The translations under genes and the position numbers were made by a program. From contig CAZOZW010000001.1 of NCBI GenBank assembly GCA_964584385.1, positions 1 to 62,475 on the forward strand: a stretch of DNA of 62,475 bases. Direction: 5' to 3'. The notes beneath the pieces were generated by a model. The model did no database searches. It saw only the letters and a list, made by a program, of their open reading frames with translations, and was not told the origin of the DNA. Numbering within the stretch: position 1 is the stretch's first letter; each line of letters begins with the position of its first letter. Shown here piece after piece: positions 1-16,783 of the stretch. Source of the DNA: an uncultured Candidatus Peribacteria bacterium (GTDB taxonomy: Bacteria > Patescibacteriota > Gracilibacteria > CAIRYL01 > GCA-016699755).

Positions 1-2
1 CC

Positions 3-119
3 AAGGTCTATCATTACGCGAGGTTTGTGGTAATAAACAAGCTCACAACAAGATTATTGAAGCGATTTATTTTGGATCACAAAGATGTAATCTTCTTTGA
101 AAAAGCAAAGATGTGCTAG
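3..119 (+). CDS. 3' end of a gene truncated by the window edge (unknown product)
   Basis: Frame 3 is open from the window edge to TAG at 117-119 (...FILDHKDVIFFEKAKMC*). No recognisable motif. Confidence 0.3.
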   Translation, partial: KVYHYARFVVINKLTTRLLKRFILDHKDVIFFEKAKMC

Positions 120-388
120 AATTTCATCCGATGTATGCAAACCTTATGAGATTATTCGCAGAGATTTTTGGCTGGTACGGCGCAGCGGCGATTGTGGGAG
201 CGTTTTTCTTGAATAGCTACAACATTGTTGAAACCACCGACCCGGTTTATTTCTTTTTAAATATCAGCGGTTCGGTCGGCATTATCATAGTTAGTATGAT
301 GAAACGCAATTATCAACCGGTTGCGCTAAATGCCGTGTGGCTGGTGATTAGCTTGGGGGCGATTTGGCAGTTGAATCAGGGATTGTAA
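113..388 (+). CDS. small 3-TM membrane protein (possibly PQ-loop/SemiSWEET-like; uncertain)
   Basis: 91-aa ORF with three hydrophobic segments (FGWYGAAAIVGAFFL, VYFFLNISGSVGIIIVSMM, ALNAVWLVISLGAIW). The ATG at 131 is an alternative start. Confidence 0.55.
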   Translation: MLEFHPMYANLMRLFAEIFGWYGAAAIVGAFFLNSYNIVETTDPVYFFLNISGSVGIIIVSMMKRNYQPVALNAVWLVISLGAIWQLNQGL

Positions 389-627
389 GCTGACAGAAGA
401 CCAAGACTCGGTGAAAAATAAGTTGACAAAATAGACGATTATTTTGTGTGTAAAATTGCTTCTAGTGAATAGTATATTTTCGGGCGCACAATTTATTAAT
501 GCGAATATTAAATGATTCTTCGCACCGCGACTGAGAATTGTTCTCATAAACTTCGATATGAACGCGGCGATTTTCAACTTGCCAAGATAATGATAGATGG
601 TAAAGTAGCCGCCTTTTTTCATTCACA

Positions 628-3600
628 ATGAATTTTCGTTCTTTTAGGTTCCGCAGAGCATCGGCGATTCTCTTCGTTCTCGGTTTAGTGCATATCGCTT
701 GCCCGGCGGATGCCGCCTCGTTAGAACCCCCCGAAGGTGTTATACAGATGCAGCTCAACGACACCGGTTACACGCGGTGCGCCGATAACAACAGCCCCTA
801 TCGCGCTTGTTCGGATGTGCGCAACCAATACCCCGGGCAAGATGCGGAATACGGACGCGATATCGACCCGCTTCGCAACAGTGATTTCGACGGTGCAGCG
901 GGATTCTCGTTCACCAAACTGGATGCCGAGGGCAAGGTACTTGCCGGTGATGCGGGTGAGTGGAGCTGTGTACGCGACAACGTAACAGGGTTGATCTGGG
1001 AACGCAAACGACGACGGACGAGTAATAATAACCGACACCAGGGTTTGCATGATGTCGCTAGTCGGTATGGTTGGGGGCAAACGGTAGACCCCGGTGGGAA
1101 CTGCCAAGCCGACGACGGCACCGAATATGAATGTTCGACGGCAAAATTTACCGAACTGGTAAACGAAGAGGCGTTATGCGGTATTACCGACTGGCGGTTG
1201 CCGGTGCGCCAAGAACTGCACTCATTGAGAAACTACAACACCGCCTACCCGGCGGTTGATACCCGGTTTTTCGGCGATATGGCGAGCGGCTCTTACATGT
1301 GGACGAGTAACCGCCTGCCGGTGGTCGACGCACTGGGGAATCTGGGTGTGGGGACGGCAACCGAGAGCTGGGGGGTGAACATCACCTCGGCGCAAGGAAC
1401 GATCTCTCCGTTCGAACACACCCGTGGCTTAGGGGTTATGCTGGTAAGCGGGCAAAAAGCATCGTGGACCCATCCCGAACGGTTCGAGATACTAGAGGAG
1501 ACCGACGAGGTGATCGACCATGTCACCGGTTTGGCATGGCAGCGGTTCGATAGTAGTAAACATACCTGGCAAGATACGCTTAATAACGAATACGAATGGG
1601 AGGATAAGACAGGCAAAGGACCGGATTACAAATGGCGCCTGCCGAACATCAAAGAGCTCGATTCGATCGTCAGCTTGGATATTATGCCGGGCGAGTATGA
1701 AGACGGTGCCCACAGCTGGCGATTCAAACCGCTCGGCAATATCGACCATGGCAAGTTCTGGACGAGCAGCTCGGAGGTAAAACGGGTGTATTCGGCATGG
1801 GTGGTCGATTTCAGTAGCGGGCGGGTGATCACCGGGCGAAAGGTACGGGTCAACTACACCCGAGCCTCAGAGTACGGTTCGATTCGGGTGCGTGATTACT
1901 ACACAATGCCGGTACGCTACCAACCCGATGAAGAGACCGATAACGATGATTTTACGGATGATAATGATGAAGACAACGAAGAGCCGATACCGATCAATAC
2001 AGAGCCATTACTCTTCTTAGAAGGTGAAGAAGAAATAACCCTTTACACCAGCGATACCTTCGAAGAACCGGGGTTCAACGCAACCGATGCCGAGGACGGG
2101 GAATTGACGTCGAACGTTGAAGTGCGGATGTACAATAGTGATAAACATACTGTTTTGAGCATCGATACCAGCTCGCCAAGTGAGTATGAGATCGAGTATC
2201 GAGTGAGTGACAGTAACGGTTCGGAGGCAGTGAAGACGAGAAAGGTTGTCGTTTTGCCGAAGCCGGAGTTATTGTTGCTGGATGAAGAGGGATTTGCCGA
2301 TACCGATGGAACAAAACGCGGGGTGGATAAGGTAAAGGCGACGGCGAATGAGGAGGAGGTGACGTTCAAGGTTTTGTATCGGGATGAGGCACAAGTGCAA
2401 GATATAAAAAATGTTCGGGTAGAAGCCCGAATAGTCGCGCATTTTGCCACGCTCTTCACCGAAGCGGGCAAGTTGATGAATCCGGCAGTTGAATATGGAA
2501 TTAGCACCAGAACAGCCCCTACCGGCAGCATGTTTATTGAGCTTGATAGCCCCCAAAGCGTGGTACAACTGAACATAGCGGGTACGGAATCGAGCAGCGA
2601 TTTCGAACTAAGGGTTTTTAGTAGTAACGACCAACTTCTTCAAACCGTTTCAGTTGCCGCCAGTGACCTCACCGGCGATAAAACCGAAAACATCATTATA
2701 TCGTCTGAGAACGATGATATTCAGAGCATCGAGATCGTCAATCTTATCAACAAGAATAACCCTTTTTCTATCACCAAGTGGTTCTTCGCCAAAGATCACG
2801 AAATGACCAGAGGAGATACAGAACAAGATGAAACCTCTTTCTCTCTTTCTGAAACATTATCGCAAGGCTCATACTCATACTCGTTTAAAGCGATTAATGG
2901 GATCAGACCACTGGAGCTTGTACAAGAGAATTTTGAATTTGAGACGGGGTATAGCAATGTGGTGTTTTTGCCGGGAATACAGTCGAGCAGACTCTATCTT
3001 CAAGAAGCCAAAGATGGAGTTTGTATTAATTGCGAGAATCAGTTGTGGGAGCCGATTTTTAGTGGCGATGCCATGAAGCTTAATATGAATGAAAACAGCA
3101 ATGGGCTTAGTGAGATTGATAATATTTATACGAAGGATGTTGTCGATGAGGTCTTTGGTGCTGCTTTCCTGCCGAATATTTACAAGACTTTCTTAATCGA
3201 GATGTCGAACTGGAAAGAAGATGGATTGGTAAACGAAGTGACTGCCATACCGTACGATTGGCGATATGATTTTGACCACATCTTAAGTCATGGGGTTAAA
3301 ATCGGTAATGAAATACACTTTTCTCAAGCATCGCGTGATCCATACATCATCAAAGAGATTGAAAGGATGATTGACACTTCGGCAAACGGACGCGTTACGA
3401 TTATTGCCCATAGTATGGGCGGCCTAGTTGCTAAGCGCATGTTTTCGAACCTGGCTAAAGAGGTAACACCCCGCAGTGAAAAGATATTGCACAACACAGA
3501 AAACTTAATACTTGTTGCATCACCACAGCTCGGTACTCCAAAAGCGATAGCTTCGCTATTGCATGGTTATAAGCAGGATGTATTACTTGTCGCCAAAAAA

Positions 3601-5313
3601 CCTGCTATCAGGCTTGGGCGATACATGCCATCTGCGTACAATCTCTTACCATCCAATAAATACATGAACTCCCTCATTCAGGGCTCAGATTACAGCAATG
3701 AAGATTACAACAACGTAAAGCCAATAACCTTTCATTATAATTTAAGGCACTTAGAGGATTCCGACCGTAAGCACCTGCTGAATTATCACGGTATTTATGG
3801 TGACGCAATTAATTCTTTAAATGAGTACTTTTCATTCTTGCGAGGCGATGAAGGACGTGAAGAGTTTGATCTTGAGATTCTTGGGCGCTTTCCTATTAAG
3901 CTATCTAACACTCTGCTGGAAAATAGTATTGAATTGCATGAGGATATCGACAACTGGACTCCGCCCGAAACGATGAGTGTAATACAAATCGCAGGCTGGG
4001 GAGTGAATACGATGCGAGGTATTGAGTACTATGCAAAATGTATAGACCCGAATAAAACCGAACTCGACCAATGCCCTCTTCAACAGCGTATACTTGGCTA
4101 TGACGCACTTTTTACCTTTGACGGCGATGAAACGGTGGTTTCGCCAAGTGCAATTGCCATGAAGGATGTAAACGAAGTTGATACGATTTATTTAGATTTA
4201 TACAGAAATAATGAAAACCAGTTTGTGAGCAATACGCACGCAAGTATTCTTGAAGCTGAGGATTTAGGTCGCTTTCTGCTGAATATTGTCAATCGAAACT
4301 TTAAAAAGAATAATAGCGACCTCGATTCATACAACTATTTAACGCGTACCAAACCAGAGCATGATGAATCATATATTCACTTAAAGCTCAACGCGAATGC
4401 CAATATCACCGTAACAGACAATACTGGGAACACCACAGGTGCTTATCATAAGGAATCGCAAGCAGAGGTGAAAGGATTTACCGAGAGTATACCGAACAGT
4501 TATTACACAGAGTTTGGCGATAAAAAGTACACCGGCGCTCCAAAAAAAGTAAATCCGGCAATCGAGATGACAGCAGCAGAAGACGGGCTCTTCACTTTAA
4601 AAATCAAAGAAGCCATTGGTGACACAACGGTGCATTCAGCAGAATTCACAAACATACCCTTAACCGCAATAAGTATTGCTACGGTCGATGTTACCGCAGG
4701 CGACAACCCGGTAATGTTAATAGATGGTGACGGCGATGGTGAGACCGATGCAACGATTGAATCTACCACAGAAAATGTTAAACAAAATCCTGTGCAAAAG
4801 CTGGAAGTGATCTCGGCTTTGCTTATCGGGACGAATATGGAAGGTGAGCTACAAGAAAAGCTTTTACGTAAGCTCATGGTCACCGAAACAAAGTTGCAAA
4901 AGGGCAAGCAGCAAAAAGCGGTAAAACGTATTCACCAGATTATTAAAAGATTAGAGCGCGAAATAAAACGCAACACCCGGTTCGCCGCTCGTAAAGAGCG
5001 TGTTACAGCCCGGGAAGCGAAGATACTGCAACGAATCGAAGATGCTCAAGAGCAGATCGGTGAAGAAGGGCGCACCGAAGTGCTCGAAGAGATTACCGAT
5101 AAAAAAGAGTTGAAAAAATTAAAGCGCCAAGCCAAAAAAGATGCCCGCTTGCAGGCGCGCATTCAGCGACTTGAAAATAAGCTCGCCGCCAAAAAAGAGC
5201 AGTGGGCAAAGTGGGAGCAAGAGCACCTTGGCATAAGAGTTAAAAGTGACGATGCCCAAACCTTAATCCTATTTCTTGAGAACCTTGTTACTCTAATAGA
5301 TTCTCAGAATTGA
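628..5313 (+). CDS. giant secreted multidomain protein: 2x DUF1566/Lcl-type, Ig-like (DUF5011-type), LCAT/PGAP1-like alpha/beta-hydrolase (lipase-like), C-terminal charged coiled coil
   Basis: Signal-peptide-like N-terminus (MNFRSFRFRRASAILFVLGLVHIACPADA). DUF1566 motifs: TGLIWERK...DWRLPVRQELHSL and TGLAWQRF...WRLPNIKELDSIV...FWTSS. Acidic linker DEETDNDDFTDDNDEDNEE. Ig-like module: EPGFNATDAEDGELTSNVEV...YEIEYRVSDSNGSEA. Hydrolase: VVFLPGIQSSRLY...VTIIAHSMGGLVAKR. K/E/R/Q-rich tail, TGA stop. Confidence 0.9.
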   Translation: MNFRSFRFRRASAILFVLGLVHIACPADAASLEPPEGVIQMQLNDTGYTRCADNNSPYRACSDVRNQYPGQDAEYGRDIDPLRNSDFDGAAGFSFTKLDAEGKVLAGDAGEWSCVRDNVTGLIWERKRRRTSNNNRHQGLHDVASRYGWGQTVDPGGNCQADDGTEYECSTAKFTELVNEEALCGITDWRLPVRQELHSLRNYNTAYPAVDTRFFGDMASGSYMWTSNRLPVVDALGNLGVGTATESWGVNITSAQGTISPFEHTRGLGVMLVSGQKASWTHPERFEILEETDEVIDHVTGLAWQRFDSSKHTWQDTLNNEYEWEDKTGKGPDYKWRLPNIKELDSIVSLDIMPGEYEDGAHSWRFKPLGNIDHGKFWTSSSEVKRVYSAWVVDFSSGRVITGRKVRVNYTRASEYGSIRVRDYYTMPVRYQPDEETDNDDFTDDNDEDNEEPIPINTEPLLFLEGEEEITLYTSDTFEEPGFNATDAEDGELTSNVEVRMYNSDKHTVLSIDTSSPSEYEIEYRVSDSNGSEAVKTRKVVVLPKPELLLLDEEGFADTDGTKRGVDKVKATANEEEVTFKVLYRDEAQVQDIKNVRVEARIVAHFATLFTEAGKLMNPAVEYGISTRTAPTGSMFIELDSPQSVVQLNIAGTESSSDFELRVFSSNDQLLQTVSVAASDLTGDKTENIIISSENDDIQSIEIVNLINKNNPFSITKWFFAKDHEMTRGDTEQDETSFSLSETLSQGSYSYSFKAINGIRPLELVQENFEFETGYSNVVFLPGIQSSRLYLQEAKDGVCINCENQLWEPIFSGDAMKLNMNENSNGLSEIDNIYTKDVVDEVFGAAFLPNIYKTFLIEMSNWKEDGLVNEVTAIPYDWRYDFDHILSHGVKIGNEIHFSQASRDPYIIKEIERMIDTSANGRVTIIAHSMGGLVAKRMFSNLAKEVTPRSEKILHNTENLILVASPQLGTPKAIASLLHGYKQDVLLVAKKPAIRLGRYMPSAYNLLPSNKYMNSLIQGSDYSNEDYNNVKPITFHYNLRHLEDSDRKHLLNYHGIYGDAINSLNEYFSFLRGDEGREEFDLEILGRFPIKLSNTLLENSIELHEDIDNWTPPETMSVIQIAGWGVNTMRGIEYYAKCIDPNKTELDQCPLQQRILGYDALFTFDGDETVVSPSAIAMKDVNEVDTIYLDLYRNNENQFVSNTHASILEAEDLGRFLLNIVNRNFKKNNSDLDSYNYLTRTKPEHDESYIHLKLNANANITVTDNTGNTTGAYHKESQAEVKGFTESIPNSYYTEFGDKKYTGAPKKVNPAIEMTAAEDGLFTLKIKEAIGDTTVHSAEFTNIPLTAISIATVDVTAGDNPVMLIDGDGDGETDATIESTTENVKQNPVQKLEVISALLIGTNMEGELQEKLLRKLMVTETKLQKGKQQKAVKRIHQIIKRLEREIKRNTRFAARKERVTAREAKILQRIEDAQEQIGEEGRTEVLEEITDKKELKKLKRQAKKDARLQARIQRLENKLAAKKEQWAKWEQEHLGIRVKSDDAQTLILFLENLVTLIDSQN
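3406..3423 (+). other. putative nucleophile elbow A-H-S-M-G-G of the lipase-like domain (Ser codon 3412-3414)
   Basis: gcc cat agt atg ggc ggc is in frame with the 628 ORF. AHSMGG is the variant GxSxG seen in Bacillus LipA, LCAT and PGAP1-type hydrolases. Confidence 0.7.
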
Positions 5314-5339
5314 AAAACAAATAATAAAGAAGTAGAATG

Positions 5340-5373
5340 AAGAGGTGTTTGATTATAAACACCTCTTTTCTTT
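5340..5373 (+). terminator. rho-independent terminator after the giant ORF
   Basis: 11-bp stem aagaggtgttt (5340-5350) / aaacacctctt (5357-5367), loop gattat, followed by a T-rich tract. Confidence 0.7.
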
Positions 5374-5386
5374 AATTTAAGTAGAA

Positions 5387-5863
5387 ATGAAGTTTAGAAA
5401 ATGGATTTTGATATTGTTAATTTTTGTAACCATATTTTTCTTAACCAGTATTATTCTTTACAACTCAAAAGAGCTTGGTTTTTGTCAAAAGAGTGTCTGT
5501 GATGTGAACTACATGTATGGCGGCATTGCTCCACCTCTTTTCTCTTTCTCGCTGGCTGCGTTCATACCCTTGTTCTTATTCTATTTCGTAAGCGACAAAG
5601 CCTTTTGGGATTGGCTCATGTTTTCTGTTGGGTTTATTGCTTTCGCCGGCTGGTGGATATATCGAGCACCGGTGGTACCACCGGGCTATTTGCCAATGCC
5701 ATTTACAGACAAAGGTACTTCAACGATTGGGTTTAGTGTGCTCTACCTGATTCTCTCTTTGGTTATTATCGGCGCTCACACTCTATTCGGTGGTGCAAAA
5801 AACAGCAGTGTTAATCATCATAAAACTAGCAATAATTCGCACACCAAAAATTTGAATGATTAG
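5387..5863 (+). CDS. polytopic (about 4 TM) small membrane protein, cassette copy 1
   Basis: 158-aa ORF with hydrophobic segments WILILLIFVTIFFLTSIILY, LFSFSLAAFIPLFLFYFV, WLMFSVGFIAFAGWWIY and IGFSVLYLILSLVIIGA. Two Cys in the first loop. Paralog of the 6290 ORF. Confidence 0.75.
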   Translation: MKFRKWILILLIFVTIFFLTSIILYNSKELGFCQKSVCDVNYMYGGIAPPLFSFSLAAFIPLFLFYFVSDKAFWDWLMFSVGFIAFAGWWIYRAPVVPPGYLPMPFTDKGTSTIGFSVLYLILSLVIIGAHTLFGGAKNSSVNHHKTSNNSHTKNLND

Positions 5864-6222
5864 ACCGTGAAATAAAACGTAATACGCGGCTTGCCGCCCG
5901 CAAAGAGCGCATTTCTGCCAGAGAAGCAAAAATACTGCAACGCATTGAAGATGCGCAGCAGCAAATAAGTGAAGAAGGTCGCACAGAGCTATTAGAAGAA
6001 ATCAACGATAAAAAAGAGTTGAAAAAACTAGAACGCCAAGCCAAAAAAGATGCCCGCTTGCAGGCGCGCATTCAGCGACTTGAAGGAAAGCTCGCCGCCA
6101 AAAAAGAGCAGTGGGCTAAGTGGGAGCAAGAGCACCCCGGCATAAGAATTAAAAGTGACGATGCCCAAACCTTAATCCTATTTCTTGAGAATCTTGTTGC
6201 ACTCGTAGATTCTCAGAATTGA
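5860..6222 (+). pseudogene. orphan copy 2 of the coiled-coil tail; only an internal TTG start (6019)
   Basis: The frame is open from the TGA at 5857-5859. It reads LDREIKRNTRLAARKERISAREAKILQRIEDAQQQISEEGRTELLEEINDKKELKKLERQAKKDARLQARIQRLEGKLAAKKEQWAKWEQEHPGIRIKSDDAQTLILFLENLVALVDSQN*. There is no ATG/GTG/TTG in frame before 6019. Confidence 0.7.
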
Positions 6223-6248
6223 AAAACAAATAATAAAGAAGTAGAATG

Positions 6249-6280
6249 AAGAGGTGTTTGCATATAACACCTCTTTGTTT
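6249..6280 (+). terminator. duplicated copy of the terminator hairpin
   Basis: Stem aagaggtgtt (6249-6258) / aacacctctt (6266-6275), then ctctttgttt. Confidence 0.65.
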
Positions 6281-6289
6281 AAGGTAATC

Positions 6290-6766
6290 ATGAAAAATCA
6301 AAAATACGTATTAATATTGTTGGGGTTAATACTTTTTTTATTAATAACTAGTTTAGTGATCAACTACTCACTTGGTAGTGGTGGCTGCAAAAAACACATC
6401 TGGGATGCCTACTATATGTGTGGCGGCATTGCTCCACCTCTTTTCTCTTTCTCGCTGGCTGCGTTCATACCATTGTTCTTATTCTATTTCGTAAGTGACA
6501 AAGCCTTTTGGGATTGGCTCATGTTTTCTGCTGGGTTTATTGCTTTCGCCGGCTGGTGGATATATCGAGCACCGGTGGTACCACCGGGCTATTTGCCAAT
6601 GCCATTTACAGACAAAGGTACTTCAACGATTGGGTTTAGTGTGCTCTACCTGATTCTCTCTTTGGTTATTATCGGCGCTCACACTCTATTCGGTGGTGCA
6701 AAAAACAGCAGTGTTAATCATCATAAAACTAGCAATAATTCGCACACCAAAAATTTGAATGATTAG
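6290..6766 (+). CDS. polytopic small membrane protein, cassette copy 2
   Basis: MKNQKYVLILLGLILFLLITSLV... From GGIAPPLFSFSLAAF to the stop it is near-identical to the 5387 ORF. The track start at 6254 lies inside the terminator hairpin, so the ATG at 6290 is preferred. Confidence 0.75.
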   Translation: MKNQKYVLILLGLILFLLITSLVINYSLGSGGCKKHIWDAYYMCGGIAPPLFSFSLAAFIPLFLFYFVSDKAFWDWLMFSAGFIAFAGWWIYRAPVVPPGYLPMPFTDKGTSTIGFSVLYLILSLVIIGAHTLFGGAKNSSVNHHKTSNNSHTKNLND

Positions 6767-7116
6767 ACCGTGAAATAAAACGTAATACGCGGCTTGCCGC
6801 CCGCAAAGAGCGCATTTCTGCCAGAGAAGCAAAAATACTGCAACGCATTGAAGATGCGCAGCAGCAAATAAGCGAAGAAGGTCGCACCGAACTATTAGAA
6901 GAAATCACCGATAAAAAAGAACTTAAAAAACTGCAAAAGCAGGCAAAAAAGGATGAACGACTCCAGCAACGAATCGAGAGGATCACCAAAAGACTTGAGA
7001 CCAAAAAAGAGAAGTGGCTCCAGTGGGAGCAAGATCACCCCGGGCAGCGGATTGCGAGTGATGATGCCGAAAAGTTAATAGCGTTTATTCAGGGAATCAT
7101 CAGCACTATGGAATAA
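6763..7116 (+). pseudogene. orphan copy 3 of the coiled-coil tail; no start codon in frame, diverged 3' half
   Basis: Open frame from the TGA at 6760-6762 to the TAA at 7114-7116. It reads REIKRNTRLAARKERISAREAKILQRIEDAQQQISEEGRTELLEEITDKKELKKLQKQAKKDERLQQRIERITKRLETKKEKWLQWEQDHPGQRIASDDAEKLIAFIQGIISTME*. No ATG/GTG/TTG occurs in frame until the penultimate codon, so it is absent from the ORF track. Confidence 0.7.
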
Positions 7117-7136
7117 CGAGAGTAATGATGGTACGA

Positions 7137-7165
7137 TTTAAAGGAGGCAATCAGCCTCCTTTAAA
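7137..7165 (+). terminator. 12-bp perfect hairpin after tail copy 3 (possible terminator; no clear T-tract)
   Basis: tttaaaggaggc (7137-7148), loop aatca, gcctcctttaaa (7154-7165). Confidence 0.4.
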
Positions 7166-7176
7166 CTGAATGAATA

Positions 7177-7800
7177 ATGACCGTGAAACTTCTGAATAAA
7201 CACGTGCTTTTAGCAGCAATTATATCTATTGGGATTATTGGTTTCCTTTTCCTATTCCATGATATTATATACAAGTTTTCGCCAATTACTGAGGAGCTTG
7301 TTTCAAACAAATTCTTCTTTGGTTCACTACTTGTTCTTACAACTTTTTTTCCATCAAGCCTCTTGCTGCTCTTCTGCAGTGAAAAAGTCACCGCTGCTTG
7401 GCTTAGATTTGCCGGTTTCACACTGCCTGCCTATGCATATTCACTCTACTTGGCAAGCGGGGTAAGGGCTACCGGTGGCATGACCGGTACAAGCATCACC
7501 GGTGGAACCGATAGCGAGGAAATGGTTTTTACCTATGTCATTTTTCATATCATTTTTTCGCTGCTGGTGATTATTTACCATGCGAAATATTACTACAAAC
7601 TCAAAAAAGCAAAAGAGACGCAGTCAAGAAAACCCGTACCGTTTTTAAACTTGTTCGAAAGAATTATCGTCGGTCTGATTCTTCTTTACTTTTTTTGGAT
7701 ATTCTTACAGGCACCTGATTTCTTTGTACAAGTGATCTTGCCATGGTTTGCGTCATACTACATCGGAAAATTGATCTATATGGTGATCAAGGGTGAATAA
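7177..7800 (+). CDS. polytopic membrane protein, distant paralog of the cassette membrane proteins (copy 3)
   Basis: 207-aa ORF with at least 5 hydrophobic segments. It shares a weak core with the 5387/6290 ORFs (FCSEKVTAAWLRFAGF versus FVSDKAFWDWLMFSVGF). Confidence 0.7.
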   Translation: MTVKLLNKHVLLAAIISIGIIGFLFLFHDIIYKFSPITEELVSNKFFFGSLLVLTTFFPSSLLLLFCSEKVTAAWLRFAGFTLPAYAYSLYLASGVRATGGMTGTSITGGTDSEEMVFTYVIFHIIFSLLVIIYHAKYYYKLKKAKETQSRKPVPFLNLFERIIVGLILLYFFWIFLQAPDFFVQVILPWFASYYIGKLIYMVIKGE

Positions 7801-7952
7801 TCACCAGTTCTACGCTTGGAGAGCGTGAAATAACGCAAGGGGGCAAGCTGGTATTCGAGCTTGCAACGAGGCTGTGGAAGAAATATACGGTTTCGAGCAA
7901 GATGAGCTGGCGAAAATGACACCACTCCCCCGCCCCGCTGATTTGAGATAAC

Positions 7953-7984
7953 AAAAAAAGACCATTTCTAAAAATGGTCTTTTA
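7953..7984. terminator. bidirectional terminator hairpin between the membrane-protein gene and the tRNAs
   Basis: agaccattt (7959-7967), loop ctaa, aaatggtct (7972-7980). Flanked by an A-run on the left and ttt on the right. Confidence 0.65.
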
Positions 7985-8002
7985 AATGCGTTCTAACAAG
8001 AA

Positions 8003-8079
8003 TGGCGCTCGCGGAGGGACTCGAACCCCCAACCTACTGGTTCGAAGCCAGGTACTCTATCCAATTGAGCTACGCGAGC
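8003..8079 (-). tRNA. tRNA-Arg (anticodon TCG), CCA encoded
   Basis: Reverse complement: GCTCGCG TA GCTC AATTGGATA GAGT A CCTGG CTTCGAA CCAGT AGGTT GGGGG TTCGAGT CCCTC CGCGAGC G CCA. It folds as a cloverleaf by hand, with one C27-U43 mismatch. Confidence 0.9.
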
Positions 8080-8100
8080 ACGGTGGTTTTTAAATAACTA

Positions 8101-8176
8101 TGGCGTTCCCGGCAGGAGTCGAACCTACGACCTTTTGGACCGCAACCAAACGCTCTATCCACTGAGCTACGGGAAC
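8101..8176 (-). tRNA. tRNA-Arg (anticodon GCG), CCA encoded
   Basis: Reverse complement: GTTCCCG TA GCTC AGTGGATA GAGC G TTTGG TTGCGGT CCAAA AGGTC GTAGG TTCGACT CCTGC CGGGAAC G CCA. Anticodon loop is U-U-GCG-G-U. Confidence 0.88.
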
Positions 8177-8302
8177 AAATTGCCAAAGGATTATGACAAG
8201 AAAAACATGGCAGAGCAAGCAAAAGGTTATGAAGCCGACTATTGCATCTGGTTATCGCGCTTGCCTGCCCCGCAAAGCTCTACCTCCAAGTGTCCGCGCC
8301 GT

Positions 8303-8338
8303 CCTCCCCCTTGATAAAGGGGGATTGAGGGGGATTTT
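8303..8338 (-). repeat. G5/C5 hairpin repeat, short form, inverted orientation
   Basis: cctcccccttgataaagggggattgagggggatttt. This approximates the reverse complement of the 8416 copy. Confidence 0.8.
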
Positions 8339-8415
8339 ACTACAGGAATGGATTGCGAAGATTAACTCTGGTACTAAGACATGTTTCGTTACCTTGTGAT
8401 TTGAAATAGTCGATG

Positions 8416-8467
8416 TTGAGTAAGCAGAAATCCCCCTTGTTTTCCCCCTTTACGAAAGGGGGAGGAG
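8416..8467 (+). repeat. G5/C5 hairpin repeat, short form
   Basis: ttgagtaagcagaaatcccccttgttttccccctttacgaaagggggaggag. Contains the hairpin ccccctt-tacg-aaggggg. Confidence 0.85.
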
Positions 8468-8592
8468 TCACGTTTTTTTGCTGATAATCTTATTACTCCG
8501 TTTACATAAAATGATCCTGTTGTATTTATTCTCATTGCTAGTATTCGCGATTGACCTAAAAACCCTACGGCACAATCTTTAACTACTAAGTT

Positions 8593-8638
8593 GCGGCGTT
8601 GCCCTCCCCCTTGATAAAGGGGGACTGAGGGGGATTTA
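8593..8638 (-). repeat. G5/C5 hairpin repeat, short form, inverted orientation; abuts the DUF559 stop codon
   Basis: gcggcgttgccctcccccttgataaagggggactgagggggattt. Confidence 0.8.
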
Positions 8639-8640
8639 TC

Positions 8641-9006
8641 TTACCTCAAAAGCTCTAATATCTTAGATCCAATTACTTGATGCACTCCTTCGCGATTCGT
8701 ATTCACGTCGGTATTGCTAAAGCGTAACACGGCAATCCCCTGCCCTTCGAGCAGCTCATCGCGAAGTTGATCATTTTTCTTGCCTTTGTTCCCGTAGTGC
8801 TGCCCACCATCAATCTCTATTGCGAGTCTGATTGAAGGTGCGTAAAAATCGAGGATGAAACTTAAGATGGGTTTTTGTCGATAAAAGCGAATTCCATGTA
8901 TCTGTTTCCGACGAATCATACTCCATACAATTACCTCTTGTGGAGTGGCATTTTTTCTTAAGTCTCGTGAAAATTGCTTGAGTTGGCTGTTGTATGGGGT
9001 GAACAT
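8641..9006 (-). CDS. DUF559 (Vsr-like) endonuclease domain protein
   Basis: MFTPYNSQLKQFSRDLRKNATPQEVIVWSMIRRKQIHGIRFYRQKPILSFILDFYAPSIRLAIEIDGGQHY...VLRFSNTDV matches the typical DUF559 pattern. Start moved to the ATG at 9006. Confidence 0.85.
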   Translation of the reverse strand: MFTPYNSQLKQFSRDLRKNATPQEVIVWSMIRRKQIHGIRFYRQKPILSFILDFYAPSIRLAIEIDGGQHYGNKGKKNDQLRDELLEGQGIAVLRFSNTDVNTNREGVHQVIGSKILELLR

Positions 9007-9162
9007 GTGGTTTGAGTAAGGCAGATAAAGTAGCAAAAGTTCACAAATAGAAAAAGAGGATTGTGCAAAAACCCCTTTTGAGTTTTCTTGCTATTTCGCC
9101 ATCATTTTCAGCACAGATAACTCGATTCGGCGCAAAAGATTGGCGAGAAGGCGTCTGGACAT

Positions 9163-9194
9163 TCACCTTGATAAAGGGGGTTGAGGAGGATTTT
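9163..9194 (-). repeat. degenerate copy of the hairpin repeat, inverted orientation
   Basis: tcaccttgataaagggggttgaggaggatttt. Confidence 0.55.
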
Positions 9195-9271
9195 GGTACC
9201 GCAAGGAATCGCGATAATCTACCTTGGTGCCAACAGATGCTTCGTTGCTTTGTGTCTTAATACTGAGTTAG

Positions 9272-9323
9272 TTGAGTAAGTAGAAATCCCCCTTGTTTTC
9301 CCCCTTTACGAAAGGGGGAGGAG
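9272..9323 (+). repeat. G5/C5 hairpin repeat, short form
   Basis: ttgagtaagtagaaatcccccttgttttccccctttacgaaagggggaggag. Almost identical to the 8416 copy, and the flanks (ttcgttgctttgtg, tttttttgctgat) are also shared. Confidence 0.85.
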
Positions 9324-9438
9324 TCAAGTTTTTTTGCTGATTTGCAAATTACTGGGTTTGTATTTGAATTACTCGTATTGCTACTATTCGCGAACGAGCT
9401 AAAAACCCATACGGCACAACGACCCATCTGCCACGAAT

Positions 9439-9514
9439 CGGCGTTGCCCTCCCCCTTTGCCTGCCCGCCGTAGCCTTGGCGGTGGTGGGATAAAGGGGGA
9501 TTGAGGGGGATTTT
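9439..9514 (-). repeat. hairpin repeat, medium form (internal GC hairpin insert), inverted orientation
   Basis: cggcgttgccctccccctttgcctgcccgccgtagccttggcggtggtgggataaagggggattgagggggatttt. Confidence 0.8.
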
Positions 9515-9521
9515 GCTCTGG

Positions 9522-9626
9522 TTGAGTGAGTAGAAATCCCCCTCTAACTCCCCCTTTTATGGGAGTGATGATGCAAGTTTGCTTGTTTGTGAGTTGTTGT
9601 GTTTGTTTAGGGTAAAGGGGGAGGAC
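9522..9626 (+). repeat. hairpin repeat, long form with embedded mini-ORF (9559-9615)
   Basis: ttgagtgagtagaaatccccctctaactccccctttt ATGGGAGTGATGATG...TAA agggggaggac. Confidence 0.85.
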
Positions 9627-9640
9627 AACTGCGTTGTAAC

Positions 9641-9672
9641 GCAAAAAGCCCAGCCTATTCAATAGGCTGGGC
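9641..9672 (-). terminator. rho-independent terminator of the S-layer gene
   Basis: Palindrome gcccagcctatt-c-aataggctgggc (9648-9672). On the minus strand it is followed by TTTTT (9643-9647). Confidence 0.8.
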
Positions 9673-9723
9673 AATTTGCAATTTTGAGAAGAAATCTTCT
9701 CTACTCTGAGCTAACCATGGTGA

Positions 9724-12700
9724 TTAGTTAGACTTTCGAGTATGTTCGATTTCGTTAATCGAGCTTGCAGAACCAAGGTCAATCCATTGTACTACGGCAC
9801 CATCGGCTCCAGTTGAACCACCGTCAATCCAAAAGATATCGTCTTGTCCTGTAGCAGGTGTTGAACCATTGATGCTGATCTTTGTTGTGATAGCGTCATC
9901 AGTATTACCAGCAGTATTTGTAGCAATATCTGCTCGGATGGTATATGTTTCTCCGTTTACACTAATAGGCTCCCCAGGTTGATTACCCGCAAGCAGTGTA
10001 GTTGCATCAGCAACAACATCTGGGCTCAATGGCAACGCTGAATCATTAGTACCAACTACTAGTGTGAAATCAGTTTGATCAAGAGCTGTTGCTTCAGTTG
10101 CTGCTATCAACTCATTATCTCCGTTATAAAGATAAACTATACCTGCTGTTCCGACAACAGGATCACAGTCAAAGGTTGTATCGCCATCAACACATGCGTT
10201 TGAACCCTCAAGAGTAACGTCAACTCGATGGATATATGGTTCATCCGATGTATCACCTGTAAAGTCTACGTCAAACTTAAGCATCTCCTGTCGTGTACCT
10301 GTAATAAGTACAGCAGTCGGTTGGTTCGCACTTTCTTCAGCAATAACCTTGTTATTAAAGACATAGATACTATCTGAAGCGTTTGTAGCAAGAATCTGAA
10401 CATTGTCATTATCTTCTACATCATCACCAGCAGCAGCTGCACCTACAGTGTTTGCAAGTGTTGCTGTAATAGTTGTTCCATCAGGAATTGCAGTAACTTG
10501 AGTCACCTGCTGTCGTGGAGTTCCACGCGCAATTACAATGTAGTCATTCACAGCAAATGCTGCGCTTGAATCTACGGTCATCGCTACAGCTGCTCCATCT
10601 GAATAGTTAGCAACATCATTGATCAATGTTGAACCTTGACCAGTTGGGATTACATCAGCTCCTGAGTCGACACCACGAATAGTGGTTTCTCCGGTTTCTG
10701 CAAGAATCAACTCTACGTTAAATGCATGACCTGATTCAGCAGTTGCGCTTGAACCACTATCATCCATTTCAGCAAGGTCTACACGTACTTCAACCAAAAG
10801 ATCTTCGCTGTCTTCAACAATAAGATCAAGGTCTTGGAAGAGGGCGATATCGTTGCCATCTACCGATGAAACACTAGCTGCTTGACCCGAAGTCTTCTTT
10901 ACAGCAGTACCGTCATCGTAGTAATAGAGAGAAACAGCGTCGATTGCATCTGAATCGTTTGCAGCGTCAGGATTCGTAATGCCATTTGCATAGAAACCTG
11001 CAGCACCCGTAACGATTTCGTTAACCTTAACGGCCAAGTCTTCAACCTCTACAGATTCGTTCACTGCTTCGAATTTGAAAACTCCAACAGGAATATCGGT
11101 CAAACCAGCAGGTACTAATTCAGTATCTGTTTTATTATTATCAACTGTTACAGTAATAGAACCGTTATCTTGAATGGTAAATATTGCACTATCAACAGGT
11201 ACCCCTGAGACTGTTGCATCGTCACCATCTTCGTCTTCAGCATCAGCTGCGGTCAGAGAAAGATCGATTGTTCTACCAGAAGTAGGATTAGAGGCAATGT
11301 TTGCGGTTACAACAATGGTGAATTCATCACCGGCAGGTACCAGCAGACCACTTGTTCCTCCGTCCTCATCCAAGCTACTAAAGGTTACACCGGCAGTAGC
11401 GGTTGGAGTCTTACCTGTTTCGACAGGAGTAAGAACATTTCCTTCTTTTTTGTAGATCGAGTAGTCGTCTACATCACTGTTAGTAGCAGTGGCGGCACCG
11501 TCATTCTCAAAGGTTAGGTCACGTATATATATATCTTCAACAGAGTTTGCACGTACCGTTGCTTCAAACACTACAACGTTCTCGGCATCTGCAACGTAAT
11601 CATCATCACCAAGTGACTTGGTTGTAAGAGTTACTGTTGGCTTAGCGACTGTGTATTGTTTTGTTGAAGGATCACCACTCGGGCGAATATCATGGTTTGT
11701 TCCACCAGGCCCCTTAGTAGTCTTGTTCGACTCTACACCCTCAACTTCAACAGTATCCATGTCGATTGCAAAGGCATATTCTTCACCTTCAGTTGCCGTA
11801 TTCTCTACGTCACCCTGAATTGAAAGAGTAATAGTTTCTCCAGTTTCTAGAATAGTTTCATCGTTAAACACAATGTTATCCTTATCATTCAAATCCTCAG
11901 GACCCATAAATGTGGCGCCTGTTTCAATGTTAACCAGTCGGATATCGGAGATATCAGTATTAGCATCATCGTCATCAGCATCTTCATCATCAACATCATC
12001 AAGTCCGATGAGAGTAAGACCTTCTTTCAACTCTACTGCTTCACCCATGTTCGTGATTGTAAGAACACCAAATTCTACGTTATCTGTATCAGGTGCAACG
12101 TCTCGTGAACTTGAGTCAATTGCGAAGGTAATGTCACCACCGTTAATGCCGATAAACGAACCGGTTGCAGGTGGCCCCGCATTTCCAAGTGGATCATTCG
12201 TTTCAGATAATCCAACACCAAAGCCGAAAGTCAAACCTTGAGCCAAGACATCGGAAGTAACCTCGTCAAATTCAACAACAAGATTTTCATTAACACCAGC
12301 GAGGATGTCTCCTTTGATACGGAAGGTCCGGTTATCTCCGTCTTCCAAAATCCAACCTTCGTCGTCAGTATCAGTAAGGTCGAAAGTTGCTTTTTCATCT
12401 TCTACCAATTCCACAATGTCTGAGACACGTTGACCTTGGTACTCAATGTACATGTTGCCAATATCGCCATCATCTGGTCCGTTAAACTCAAAGGTCATTG
12501 CTTGGAGCAATACATCTTCTGCAGAACCAGCTTCTACTTCAATTTTAGCTAGCTCAACATCTGTTTCGCCTACTTCAATTGTGTTGTCAGATACATTGTT
12601 GTAAGTAAATTCAAGACTACCAACTTCAACATTGGCAATAGTCATGGTTTCACCACTAGCCGGGAAGTCACCAACGATCTCTACATCGCCACCGGTTTCT

Positions 12701-13857
12701 GCACCAACAGCAGTAATATCTTCGCTAGAAGCAATACTGAAGTTGTGCTCACCACCAGAGGCAGACGCATTGATATCGCCAGCAATGATGATAGTTTTTG
12801 TTGCGTCAGCCGGAACGGTTACCGGGTCTGATGCTAAGTTCAATGGAGCGATTTCTTCGTCGTTTGTAAACGGACGATCTGTTCCACGTTGCTTGATGCC
12901 ATCGAAGACTTTAACGTCTTGAATCTCATCTTCATTACCAAGTCCACCGTGTGAAACGGTAACACCGGTAACCTCGATATCTTGATCACCATTATTGGTA
13001 AGGTCAAGTGCCAAGAATGGAACATTCGAACCATTTCGTGGAATTGAAGAACCTTCTGGGGTTTCGCTCGAAACGCTTACTTCGAGTGAACCAACCGGAG
13101 CAGGTGGATCCTCTGGATCATCTTCATCACCTGGATCTTCTGGATCCTCTGGGTCTTCTCCATCAACTGGATCTTCGGTATCGGTACAGATGTCTTCACC
13201 ATCGGCAACCTTCATCGAGTTCAAGAGAACTTTTGCTACTTCACCACGGGTAATGTTTCCGTTCGGTGAGAAAGTGGTTGCTGTGGTTCCGTTTACAATA
13301 CATTGATTGTAAGCGGTTGCTACATACTCGTAGAACCAGTCGCTTTCAGCCACATCGGTGAAAGGAGGCTCTGGCATGAGCATGGTTTCGATATCGCCGG
13401 TTAAGAGTAAAACCTTAAGCGCAGCCGATCGTGTGATCGGGCTGTTTGGGCCAAAGGTTCCGTCAGGGAATCCGTTTACGATATCGAGGCCTTTTGCTAC
13501 TTCGACATAGTCGAAGAACCAATCGTCGGCGCTAACATCGCTAAAGGTAGGATTCGCTCCGTCGGCGAATGCATCGGCGAGGTCTGATACGGTTTCACCG
13601 TAAAAGGCTTCGATCGCCAATTTCGTCAACTCGGCTCGTGTGAGTGAGTTGTTCGGAAAGTACATGGTTTTCGGAGTACCATCATCGTTATGTGTCGAGA
13701 TGATATCGTTTTCGGCGAGGTCAATGATAAACTCCTCGGCCCAATGGCCAGAAATATCAGTGAACTCAGGCACTGCTGCTGCCACAGGTGTTGCGGCGAC
13801 CGCGAATGCAACAGTCAAGCTTGCCACGCTTGCTGTGAGTTTCTTCAGAAGATTCAT
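9724..13857 (-). CDS. giant SLH-domain surface (S-layer-like) protein
   Basis: Signal peptide MNLLKKLTASVASLTVAFAVAATPVAAA. Three SLH repeats (FTDISGHWAEEFI..., FSDVSADDWFFDYVEVAKGLDIVNGFPDGTFGPNSPITRSAALKVL, FTDVAESDWFYEYVATAYNQCIVNGTTATTFSPNGNITRGEVAKVL). Acidic DPED linker, then about 1100 aa of T/D/E/G/V-rich beta-type sequence. Start moved to the ATG at 13857. Confidence 0.88.
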   Translation of the reverse strand: MNLLKKLTASVASLTVAFAVAATPVAAAVPEFTDISGHWAEEFIIDLAENDIISTHNDDGTPKTMYFPNNSLTRAELTKLAIEAFYGETVSDLADAFADGANPTFSDVSADDWFFDYVEVAKGLDIVNGFPDGTFGPNSPITRSAALKVLLLTGDIETMLMPEPPFTDVAESDWFYEYVATAYNQCIVNGTTATTFSPNGNITRGEVAKVLLNSMKVADGEDICTDTEDPVDGEDPEDPEDPGDEDDPEDPPAPVGSLEVSVSSETPEGSSIPRNGSNVPFLALDLTNNGDQDIEVTGVTVSHGGLGNEDEIQDVKVFDGIKQRGTDRPFTNDEEIAPLNLASDPVTVPADATKTIIIAGDINASASGGEHNFSIASSEDITAVGAETGGDVEIVGDFPASGETMTIANVEVGSLEFTYNNVSDNTIEVGETDVELAKIEVEAGSAEDVLLQAMTFEFNGPDDGDIGNMYIEYQGQRVSDIVELVEDEKATFDLTDTDDEGWILEDGDNRTFRIKGDILAGVNENLVVEFDEVTSDVLAQGLTFGFGVGLSETNDPLGNAGPPATGSFIGINGGDITFAIDSSSRDVAPDTDNVEFGVLTITNMGEAVELKEGLTLIGLDDVDDEDADDDDANTDISDIRLVNIETGATFMGPEDLNDKDNIVFNDETILETGETITLSIQGDVENTATEGEEYAFAIDMDTVEVEGVESNKTTKGPGGTNHDIRPSGDPSTKQYTVAKPTVTLTTKSLGDDDYVADAENVVVFEATVRANSVEDIYIRDLTFENDGAATATNSDVDDYSIYKKEGNVLTPVETGKTPTATAGVTFSSLDEDGGTSGLLVPAGDEFTIVVTANIASNPTSGRTIDLSLTAADAEDEDGDDATVSGVPVDSAIFTIQDNGSITVTVDNNKTDTELVPAGLTDIPVGVFKFEAVNESVEVEDLAVKVNEIVTGAAGFYANGITNPDAANDSDAIDAVSLYYYDDGTAVKKTSGQAASVSSVDGNDIALFQDLDLIVEDSEDLLVEVRVDLAEMDDSGSSATAESGHAFNVELILAETGETTIRGVDSGADVIPTGQGSTLINDVANYSDGAAVAMTVDSSAAFAVNDYIVIARGTPRQQVTQVTAIPDGTTITATLANTVGAAAAGDDVEDNDNVQILATNASDSIYVFNNKVIAEESANQPTAVLITGTRQEMLKFDVDFTGDTSDEPYIHRVDVTLEGSNACVDGDTTFDCDPVVGTAGIVYLYNGDNELIAATEATALDQTDFTLVVGTNDSALPLSPDVVADATTLLAGNQPGEPISVNGETYTIRADIATNTAGNTDDAITTKISINGSTPATGQDDIFWIDGGSTGADGAVVQWIDLGSASSINEIEHTRKSN
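13237..13767 (-). other. three tandem SLH (S-layer homology) modules
   Basis: See the SLH motifs above. This corresponds to residues about 31-207 counted from the 13857 start. Confidence 0.8.
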
Positions 13858-14556
13858 ATCTTCGTTATAAAAAAGAAAAATAAGAAACCTACCGCTATAC
13901 ATTATGTATTACGTAGGCGGAGTTTTCTTGGGTTTGGTTTGTGCTTCATAAAGGTTTCATTCCGATAGCCGCTGAAAGCACGCTCGGCTACGGATCTTGT
14001 GCATTGTTTTCTTCTCCGTGAATCTTTCGATACGTTTTGCCTGCAAAGAGCAAAACATATTTTGCAAACAACAATGTATTGTTTGCGGTTTCGTTGGTGT
14101 TAAGGGTCGAATCGTTTTTGGGGTTATCCCCGGAGTTGTCGTAGTTGTTTCGCGCTCCTTTGCCTCCTCGGAATTTTTTTACCCACACAGTATCTAGTAA
14201 TTCGTACCGAAAAGTCAATCGATCGATACGGATTTTGCTGTGCTTATATGCCGCAGAGTGTTGCGGCTCAAGTGGTGTGTGGGGGGTGAAAGAAAGTTCG
14301 CGACTGGTTTTCGCGACTCACACTAACTAACGCAGGGGGTGCAAAAATGTTTCAGTTTTTTTATTGATTGCTGAAGATATATGTTTTAAAGATACATTTT
14401 TGGTGTATGAAACAACCGAGACAGGCAGTTGTTCACGGCTTGGGGATTAGTGATTGTTGTGCGGTTGAAACAGGGATCGGTTTGAGCGCTTCAATTACTA
14501 TTCTAATTGATGATGGTGTATTTATGTATTGGTTTGGGTTGATTTATGGCGATGAA

Positions 14557-16780: not shown

Positions 16781-16783
16781 GGT

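Follow-up and report, generated by a model that had tools for sequence, protein, structure and literature searches.

Polymorphic toxin loci hold orphan modules, and the CdiA-CT/CdiI and Rhs-CT/RhsI modules of this kind have been reviewed (PMC9086364). In these loci a large exported protein is encoded together with a small cognate gene, and startless 3′ fragments lie downstream, each with a small gene of its own. What is an orphan in one genome is resident in another, and after a replacement the old module stays behind downstream. The N-terminal parts vary or are shared without regard to the 3′ module. Here we describe a locus that, taken with its relatives in other genomes, resembles them in these respects. 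It lies in a stretch of 62,475 nucleotides (nt) from an uncultured Candidatus Peribacteria bacterium (contig CAZOZW010000001.1; the whole stretch is called the window), where the gene of a large secreted lipase-like protein, the resident gene, is followed by a tandem array of partial copies of its 3′ end, each with a gene for a small membrane protein.

Membrane-acting toxins have polytopic membrane immunity proteins, often in tandem, as with colicin A/E1 immunity and TspA/TsaI. The array is like these in that small integral membrane proteins with three to four or more transmembrane (TM) helices are encoded right after the toxin or, here, the candidate effector, TsaI genes also standing in tandem arrays. 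The pilE/pilS and vlsE loci are silent-cassette systems for antigenic variation; here the likeness lies in promoterless, startless partial 3′ copies near an expression locus, mosaic as if by gene conversion. In the reverse lipase toxin TslA of the Staphylococcus aureus type VII secretion system (T7SS), which is countered by TilA immunity, the enzyme is N-terminal to a helical C-terminal domain and the protective genes are in tandem (PMC10730906). The window lipase is likewise N-terminal to a helical domain, with candidate protective genes in adjoining tandem copies.

On balance, we lean towards reading the array as the 3′-end and partner cassettes of an exchanged module made of an effector and a protective partner. 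An earlier reading of this DNA from its letters alone, the sequence-only reading, had noted a formal likeness to the orphan C-terminal and partner modules of polymorphic toxins. That likeness is now backed by the layout of about a dozen loci, by orphans that match across genomes, by a replacement between two syntenic loci (L014 and L007; L numbers denote loci fetched from relatives) and by coding constraint on the orphans.

The tandem array and its mosaic units

Repeat finding and a three-way alignment bear out the three-unit tandem repeat that had been proposed. The array (4957-7833) holds units of about 0.9 kb, each composed of a tail of about 119 codons (in the first unit, the last 119 codons of the 1561-residue open reading frame, ORF), a hairpin and a gene for a small polytopic membrane protein. 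The ORFs of 1561, 158 and 207 residues are as first described. The features of the array are the following.

628-5313, plus strand: resident gene for a 1561-residue secreted multidomain protein (ORF call and Pfam)
4957-5865, plus strand: cassette 1, the 119 codons that end the resident gene, with a hairpin and membrane-protein gene 1
5866-6768, plus strand: cassette 2, an orphan tail without start codon, with a hairpin and membrane-protein gene 2
6769-7819, plus strand: cassette 3, an orphan tail without start codon whose 3′ half is diverged, with a hairpin and the likewise diverged membrane-protein gene 3
4953-4966, plus strand: boundary motif AGAGCGCGAAATAA, copy 1, within the resident ORF (codons ..L-E-R-E-I-K..)
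5862-5875, plus strand: boundary motif, copy 2, overlapping the stop codon of membrane gene 1
6765-6778, plus strand: boundary motif, copy 3, overlapping the stop codon of membrane gene 2
7820-7833, plus strand: boundary motif, copy 4, 20 nt past the stop of membrane gene 3
5339-5368, plus strand: hairpin with T-run between tail 1 and membrane gene 1
5860-6222, plus strand: orphan tail 2, a 120-codon open frame right after an in-frame TGA, its first start codon TTG at 6019; 88% amino-acid identity to tail 1
6763-7116, plus strand: orphan tail 3, 117 codons and a stop, opening right after an in-frame stop, no start codon; the 5′ half nearly the same as in tail 2
5387-5863, plus strand: membrane protein 1, 158 residues, four TM helices, first outer loop containing Cys
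6290-6766, plus strand: membrane protein 2, 158 residues; residues 46-158 practically those of protein 1, residues 1-45 strongly diverged
7177-7800, plus strand: membrane protein 3, 207 residues, a diverged member of the same family

One repeat family (A) has direct copies at 4933-5232, 5842-6141 (83%) and 6745-7044 (71%), spaced by 909 and 903 nt, and a second (B) at 5369-5668 and 6272-6571 (78%). The junction of units 1 and 2 is identical to that of units 2 and 3 over at least 59 nt. A 14-nt motif, AGMGCGYGAAATAA, is found at 4953, 5862, 6765 and 7820, with no other copy in the 62-kb window (0.22 expected by chance). Since the four copies fall at the unit starts and at the end of the array, either a direct repeat or a further unit's stub delimits it; the last copy can be either a fourth-unit stub or the original flanking direct repeat.

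The units are mosaic. Alignment and sliding comparison agree with the proposal that tails 1 and 2 are alike in their 3′ halves and tails 2 and 3 in their 5′ halves. In the tail 5′ half (4957-5109), units 1 and 2 differ at 34 of 153 positions and units 2 and 3 at 5 of 153. Over the tail 3′ half and hairpin (5110-5349), units 1 and 2 differ at 15 of 240 positions, and unit 3 is about 57-63% identical. The membrane genes of units 1 and 2 also behave as first read, being alike over the C-terminal part and different in the N-terminal 45 residues: codons 1-45 (from 5387) have proportions of synonymous (pS) and nonsynonymous (pN) differences of 0.66 and 0.36, compared with 3 differing nucleotides out of 346 over codons 46-158 (5520-5865). 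Units 2 and 3 are not alignable in either part. From these comparisons, what is evidently a recent duplication spans the 3′ half of the membrane gene, the junction and the 5′ half of the tail. Evidently old, constrained divergence occupies the tail 5′ half of unit 1 relative to units 2 and 3, the 5′ part of the membrane gene between units 1 and 2, and all of unit 3 past the tail 5′ half.

The orphan tails bear the marks of coding sequence. Tails 1 and 2 have pS 0.43 and pN 0.06 overall, and pS 0.72 (saturated) and pN 0.067 in the 5′ half; the 3′ halves of tails 2 and 3 have pS 0.78 and pN 0.32. Although the 3′ half of tail 3 is diverged, it keeps the pattern W..W.Q.H.G.R..SDDA..LI.F and the heptads. 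Neither orphan tail 2 nor orphan tail 3 contains a frameshift, an indel or a stop codon. The high pS with low pN, not to be expected of a fragment that drifted as non-coding DNA for so long, indicates that the orphan tails diverged under selection as coding sequence; they would either have been part of an expressed gene until recently or still be under selection.

Hairpins equivalent to that of the first unit stand at 6249-6275 and, with a different sequence, at 7140-7162. The stop codons of tails 1 and 2 (5310-5368, 6219-6275) overlap a promoter-like site, TTGAAA-17-TAGAAT, and a strong hairpin with a T-run comes next, just ahead of the membrane gene. Units 1 and 2 share this arrangement, but promoter-like hexamers ahead of their membrane genes are no commoner than in shuffled sequence. 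An Rfam scan of the window gave no match inside the array.

Several mechanisms for the repeats and their reading frames were tried and rejected. A diversity-generating retroelement is unsuitable, as there is no reverse transcriptase among the window ORFs and the copies differ in all four bases, chiefly at third codon positions, with no adenine bias. Neither a recombinase nor significant inverted repeats were found for an integron or a site-specific inversion. For a programmed -1 frameshift that would fuse membrane protein 1 to tail 2, the frame offset of -1 is right, but AAT-GAT-TAG offers no slippery sequence.

Lipase, helical tail and membrane partner

The resident protein consists, in order, of a signal-peptide-like N-terminus, two Lcl_C domains (DUF1566), an Ig-like domain, an LCAT-like alpha/beta-hydrolase, a beta-sandwich and a helical tail. 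Pfam matches are Lcl_C (7.1e-34), Bact_surface_Ig-like (8.9e-13) and LCAT (PF02450; 4.6e-16, 59.5 bits against a curated cut-off of 21). Its C-terminal modules are:

2941-4734, plus strand: lipase and beta-sandwich module, 35-38% identical to a Patescibacteria family (alignment, hidden Markov model (HMM) and tblastn, the last taken against 86 loci)
4729-5310, plus strand: C-terminal helical tail with FIMAH-like helices, an antiparallel coiled-coil hairpin of about 52 + 42 residues and a terminal helix (..SDDAQTLILFLENLV..)

The family alignment keeps GHSMGG, a nucleophile elbow of the form G-H-S-x-G-G, and the Asp and His motifs DGD..V and H..ILE. By profile and motifs together, the protein classifies as a putative LCAT-like lipase. 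The beta-sandwich ends in D-x-D-G-D-G.

The tail had been described as a coiled coil, which needs revision: the coiled coil appears to be a long hairpin inserted in a FIMAH-like terminal helical domain, not a tail standing by itself. The FIMAH profile (PF22888, curated cut-off 24.8 bits) scores 15.2 bits in the window, which is below the cut-off, 21.4 in L007, 16.4 in L025 and 25.2, above the cut-off, in L013. The window match is limited to the helices ahead of the coiled-coil insertion. In a single-sequence AlphaFold2 model of the tail, residues 60-111 and 123-164 form a long antiparallel coiled-coil hairpin (predicted local distance difference test, pLDDT, 75-89), and the model shows this predicted hairpin between the FIMAH-like helices and the last helix. 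The repeat boundary lies 15 residues into the first long helix of the tail.

The stop of the resident gene and membrane gene 1 are separated by 73 nt on the same strand. Membrane gene 2 most likely starts at the ATG at 6290 and not at the GTG at 6254 of the longest ORF; from this ATG its product is 82% identical to protein 1 (E 6e-91). Protein 3 gives a BLASTP E value of only 0.011 against proteins 1 and 2 and no tblastn match, but a family HMM built without it finds it at E 4e-7 over profile positions 38-134, which makes it a diverged homologue. This corrects the weak shared core once proposed for this protein: the similarity shows in the family profile and is not significant pairwise. Against the protein database, protein 3 finds only itself, and proteins 1 and 2 have no record by exact look-up.

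Protein 1 belongs to a family of proteins of about 140 residues, of which an exhaustive HMMER search finds 19 relatives (E down to 1.4e-9). Shared features are a G-L-C..C loop, W-K-K-F-A and I-S-L-x-I-I-x-K-S. No Pfam or NCBIfam family covers the 158-residue protein. With an alignment of 21 sequences, AlphaFold2 gives protein 1 four long helices (pLDDT 83; predicted template-modelling score, pTM, 0.73), and we are confident in predicting that the partner is a four-helix membrane bundle. A fold search with this model against PDB found no match (best E 0.48).

The N-terminal part of the partner, namely the first TM helix and the Cys loop and in some pairs the sequence through the second TM helix, has diverged, whereas the C-terminal halves match fully or almost fully, in three independent pairs:

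Window, 5387-5521 against 6290-6424
L080, 5347-5787 against 7354-7743 (proteins 1 and 3)
L014 orphan, 5720-6076, against L009, 1515-1919

The pattern points either to an outer loop under diversifying change or to recombination with a breakpoint within the partner gene.

To place this gene pair among relatives, we used 175 loci from a genome scan with the lipase alignment, 80 of which were examined. The fetched loci are nearly all titled Patescibacteria, Parcubacteria or Paceibacterota metagenome-assembled genomes (MAGs). Profiles of the lipase, tail and membrane protein were run over the stop-to-stop ORFs of every fetched locus, and a partner was called when an HMM-detected gene starts less than 700 nt downstream of the lipase gene. 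Counted over the 70 loci that have a complete lipase gene and at least 700 nt downstream, lipase, tail and membrane gene follow in this order on one strand in 53. Eleven further loci have an ORF of 92-133 residues with three or four TM helices, 4-45 nt after the stop, so that about 64 of the 70 carry a small polytopic ORF in all. The full-length 1561-residue ORF matches only itself among 5.8 billion proteins.

A search from the membrane protein leads to the same pair. The best family match, P0123, is on a 1.4-kb contig from an unrelated metagenome and stands in a tail, membrane gene, tail arrangement: upstream is a protein end with ..LDSLIKKLEREIKRNERI.., a charged coil and ..KISTEDAQLIIFYLEEIK before the stop, and downstream a second, startless ..ITLDSLIKKLEREIKRNERI... 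This locus has the peptide L-E-R-E-I-K-R-N, the same as at the window junction. Scanning metagenomes with the membrane family (a five-sequence subset, as the full 21-sequence alignment is too diverse) gave 7 loci with an LCAT-like lipase and tail directly upstream wherever the upstream sequence suffices, and further look-ups agree. Taken together, the loci well support the view that an LCAT-like lipase with FIMAH-like tail and a 4-TM protein of about 140 residues form a conserved gene pair, widespread in Patescibacteria (candidate phyla radiation, CPR).

The N-terminal modules vary by locus, being mostly a right-handed beta-helix (NosD-like) and in the window Lcl_C and Ig; the core of lipase, sandwich and tail is constant. 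The lipase alignment has no match on viral contigs, hence no sign of phage origin. Some Patescibacteria genomes have two or three separate lipase and partner loci (L033 and L038 in one MAG, L022 and L080 in another), and two lipase and partner copies are found within L022, at 1574-3280 and 6091-7749. We found no description of the lipase and 4-TM module in the searchable literature, whose coverage is incomplete, so that this is absence of evidence only.

Exchange between genomes and rival readings

Startless 3′ fragments with their own membrane gene, as in CdiA and Rhs loci, are found in window cassettes 2 and 3 and in L004, L009, L014, L034, L049, L074, L080 (two) and L083. With further 3′ fragments in L021, L022 and L027, about a dozen loci have them overall. 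Arrays of membrane genes only are found in L005, L008, L045, L077 (three copies) and L083 (four copies), and truncated partner genes that resemble decay products in L024 and L052. The start of a fragment can lie at any point between the middle of the lipase fold (lipase-profile position 315) and the last third of the tail (tail-profile position 52), and no orphan fragment of the loci checked has a start codon with a signal peptide. Two long orphans, L049 8826-10112 (429 codons) and L074 8353-9402 (350 codons), stay open and are 33-35% identical to the resident lipase of their own locus.

The exchange is best seen in L007 and L014, which are syntenic and each followed by rpiB and rpe. L007 has the order lipase, tail A, membrane gene A, rpiB. 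L014 has a different, L005-like lipase body, tail B, membrane gene B, a fragment of tail A, membrane gene A and rpiB. DNA similarity between the two stops at the start of the lipase domain and resumes inside the tail fragment, and L009 has the reciprocal order of tail A, membrane gene A, orphan tail B and membrane gene B. The comparison of L014 with L007 is direct sequence evidence of what appears to be a replacement, after which a piece of the old tail and its partner gene stayed on downstream.

Several orphans best match resident genes elsewhere: that of L034 matches L026 (66%), that of L080 L049 (62.5%) and that of L074 L033 and L048 (50-52%), and their membrane genes best match the same loci as their tails. 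As in CdiA and Rhs loci, then, the 3′ module is exchanged with the 5′ part and the flanks kept, for L014 relative to L007 and L009 and for the orphans of L034, L080 and L074. The orphans of the window and L083 and the second orphan of L080 are closest to their own resident gene, which makes them in-situ paralogues. The idea that the coiled coil is specifically the exchanged part, with the enzyme outside, fails on these data, given the spread of fragment starts and the swap of a whole lipase body in L014; the tail-only unit of the window is one outcome of variable breakpoints.

These loci also differ from CdiA-CT and Rhs systems, to which they are here likened by gene layout and sequence alone. 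The window ORFs include no two-partner, type VI or type VII secretion context and no dedicated delivery system, the lipase proteins beginning with signal-peptide-like sequences, and there is no family-wide VENN or PxxxxDPxGL-type demarcation motif. The exchanged part reaches from the whole lipase body to the coiled-coil tail and belongs to one enzyme family, not to unrelated toxin folds; the small protein has four TM helices, and the host is a Patescibacteria member. TslA has no Sec signal; for T7SS targeting it relies on its helical domain, which is LXG-like and is joined by small helical partners. TilA belongs to the DUF576 lipoproteins, which are not 4-TM proteins, and no sequence relationship to it was found. 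Neither the lipase protein nor its neighbours have T7SS, LXG or DUF576 matches in Pfam. Colicins A/E1 and TspA are pore-formers or depolarisers with hydrophobic helical domains, unlike a lipase with a highly charged tail, and the 4-TM partner has no sequence or fold similarity to polytopic immunity families in Pfam and PDB. The cassettes of pilS and vlsE are without a partner gene, are many more in number and have known recombination-initiating elements.

For the array as a set of exchanged cassettes, we infer repeated recombination at the 3′ end of the lipase gene. Duplication or unequal crossing-over at the short boundary repeat (AGAGCGYGAAATAA), followed by patchy gene conversion or allelic replacement, would give the mosaic. 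With good support, cassette 1 can be read as the in-frame end of the expressed gene with its partner gene, and cassettes 2 and 3 as silent, startless tails, each with an intact partner gene that has its own start codon. In related loci, a divergent 3′ region would arrive together with its partner gene, replace the resident one and push the old fragment and partner downstream, the displacement mechanism that has also been proposed for CdiA-CT/CdiI and Rhs-CT/RhsI orphans. The replacements in relatives place such foreign-module replacement within the repertoire of the family. The silent tails share identical runs of 51-104 nt, the resident tail and tail 2 share a 51-nt run, and the partner genes share 346 nt with three differences. 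With such stretches, homologous deletion or conversion that changes the partner or the tail is mechanistically easy, and the silent tails and partner genes may serve as its substrates, switching partner gene and tail variant.

As for function, it seems about evenly poised whether the lipase is a surface effector that attacks membrane lipids, with the 4-TM protein as its immunity-like protective partner. The lipase would be displayed on the cell surface through its variable adhesin-like N-terminal module (Lcl_C and Ig here, beta-helix elsewhere), and orphan partner genes would extend protection against variants carried by neighbours. We favour these roles because of the module exchange, the leftover partner genes, the partner-only arrays, the variable N-termini on a constant enzyme and the precedent of polytopic immunity proteins. 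More tentatively, the loci could represent an undescribed, phylum-wide polymorphic effector and immunity system, in which a Sec-exported, adhesin-mounted LCAT-like phospholipase acts on host or rival membranes and is paired with a hypervariable 4-TM immunity protein, with silent cassettes swapped in and out by recombination and with the window caught mid-exchange.

To our knowledge, few candidate effectors have been named by which the ultra-small, episymbiotic CPR bacteria might attack the membranes of other cells, feed on them or compete there. The surface lipase with its 4-TM partner is a concrete, widespread and easily recognised two-gene module. It carries population-genetic marks of conflict (module exchange across genomes, orphan cassettes and a hypervariable outer half of the partner) and brings a Sec-dependent enzyme family of a monoderm candidate phylum under the orphan-module logic known from polymorphic toxin loci.

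Several points weigh against this interpretation of the array. If the 4-TM protein were immunity against the enzyme, tail-only orphans need not stay open. No relatives of the window tails appeared in protein, genome or metagenome searches: a tail-only query against the 5.8 billion proteins gave no match, not even itself, the word index being evidently insensitive for this query; the tail alignment gave no confirmed locus among genome and metagenome contigs; and against the fetched loci orphan tails 2 and 3 match the window alone, a longer tail-1 query giving weak partial matches in L013, L007 and L032 only. As nothing closer to the window orphans turned up elsewhere in these searches, only other loci show displacement by foreign DNA, and in-situ duplication with conversion suffices for the window array. 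Recombinant junctions of the array were not observed, and its unit order and copy number come from one assembly, that of the window. No genes for secretion or delivery (two-partner secretion, type VI or type VII secretion systems or similar), recombinases or mobile elements are found among the window ORFs. There is no conserved family-wide demarcation motif for the variable region either: breakpoints vary, and what the window has is only a local boundary repeat.

The last of these points concerns the tail and its partner. We compared distances of catalytic domain, beta-sandwich, tail and partner over 48 pairs, where physical linkage confounds every correlation between tail, partner and enzyme. 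Partner distance correlates with the catalytic domain at r 0.48, with the beta-sandwich at r 0.47 and with the tail at r 0.25, the partial coefficient of the tail being negative. Specific co-variation of tail and partner is thus not supported by these distances, and linkage alone explains why fragment and partner travel together. The sequence-only reading had put forward a switch specific to the tail and its partner, for which co-variation in relatives was to be the check. It fares no better in the window, where membrane proteins 1 and 2 differ strongly in residues 1-45 (pN 0.36) and their tails are 88% identical.

That idea belongs with the strongest rival, which we nonetheless consider unlikely. 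In it the 4-TM protein is a receptor that holds the C-terminal region of the lipase at the producer's membrane or takes up its lipid products, the pairs co-evolve fast and the duplicated arrays are spares. CPR bacteria are believed to rely on lipids from their hosts. The two genes are packed tightly, in many loci only 4-45 nt apart, the partner has two short outer loops with a conserved Cys pair, and the enzyme ends in a helical domain whose stalk, about 7 nm long in the model, might reach a membrane protein. Tail and partner are also the fastest-evolving parts, with a mean p-distance of 0.75 each, and the repeated unit of the window is exactly tail plus partner. Docking or anchoring is nevertheless hard to reconcile with a co-variation that favours the catalytic domain over the tail, with the strong difference of membrane proteins 1 and 2 where the tails differ little, and with partner-only arrays and partners left behind after enzyme replacement. 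FIMAH-type tails are moreover carried by many secreted enzymes without such a neighbour. If the partner were an anchor or lipid acceptor, the module would still define a new docking system for surface enzymes.

It is improbable that the array is a neutral by-product, that is, ordinary tandem duplications that end inside the upstream gene, plus gene conversion, with the orphan tails as passengers and selection at most on the dosage or diversification of the membrane gene. A short direct repeat bounds every unit, as in unequal crossing-over, the 1/2 and 2/3 junctions are identical, breakpoints differ across loci, the partner genes of L024 and L052 look truncated and decayed, and the orphans lack a start codon or signal peptide. 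However, resident and orphan tails combine saturated synonymous sites with low amino-acid change (omega about 0.03-0.3), the window orphans are free of frameshifts and stops, and elsewhere orphan frames of 350 and 429 codons are open. Several orphans are nearer to resident genes of other genomes, which is impossible by in-situ duplication, and the arrangement recurs in about a dozen lineages.

Finally, the array might owe its order to the assembly. JGI contigs are 100% identical to the window over 1-5745 and 6756-17800 and end some 100-125 nt beyond the point where the units can last be told apart, which we take for the behaviour of a de Bruijn assembler at a repeat branch. The break at 6756 is present in two different samples, a third contig also starting there, and such matching breaks mean that the repeat branches exist in independent assemblies. 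An artefact, in which the assembler strung together the two-cassette loci of two co-existing strains with different alleles of the tail 5′ half and of the N-terminus of the membrane protein, fits the position of the array in a MAG contig, the sharing of both flanks of cassette 2 with its neighbours, the record of membrane protein 2 from the NCBI assembly only and the breaks of the JGI contigs inside the repeat, but is very improbable given a JGI contig (L003) that runs unbroken through the tail-1 region, the 6756 branch in two samples and arrays of three or four units in many unrelated assemblies; even a strain chimera would leave the locus polymorphic for exactly these cassette segments.

Neighbourhood of the array

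The neighbours of the array in the window are housekeeping genes, together with genes for SLH, PEGA, lamin-tail-domain (LTD) and ComEC proteins, a set that would suit a member of the Patescibacteria, the group to which almost all relatives of the array belong. Directly after the array are two adjacent tRNA-Arg genes with TCG and GCG anticodons (8003-8079 and 8101-8176, minus strand); the GCG anticodon suggests a decoding of CGN codons that is independent of an inosine tRNA.

Around a gene for a DUF559 endonuclease-like protein (8641-9036, minus strand), G/C-tract repeats, CCCCCTTGATAAAGGGGGA.TGAGGGGGATTT, occur in both direct and inverted orientation (8288-8337, 8588-8637, 8445-8466), and a repeat of about 180 nt lies on both sides of it at 82% identity (8309-8485 and 9166-9341). 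The surroundings of this gene look like a small repeat element.

Further on, a 1392-residue SLH-domain protein is a candidate S-layer protein (9724-13902, minus strand). It is adjoined by a MazE/PemK toxin-antitoxin pair (14978-15564, minus strand), annotated on the identical JGI contig L001. A 1310-residue lamin-tail-domain protein (28813-32745) is encoded immediately upstream of a ComEC-type competence channel (32742-34211), the genes overlapping by 4 nt, and the two may be a pair for DNA binding and DNA uptake. An abiF RNA motif (Rfam) is found at 35502-35538 on the minus strand, with 47.4 bits against a gathering score of 37.

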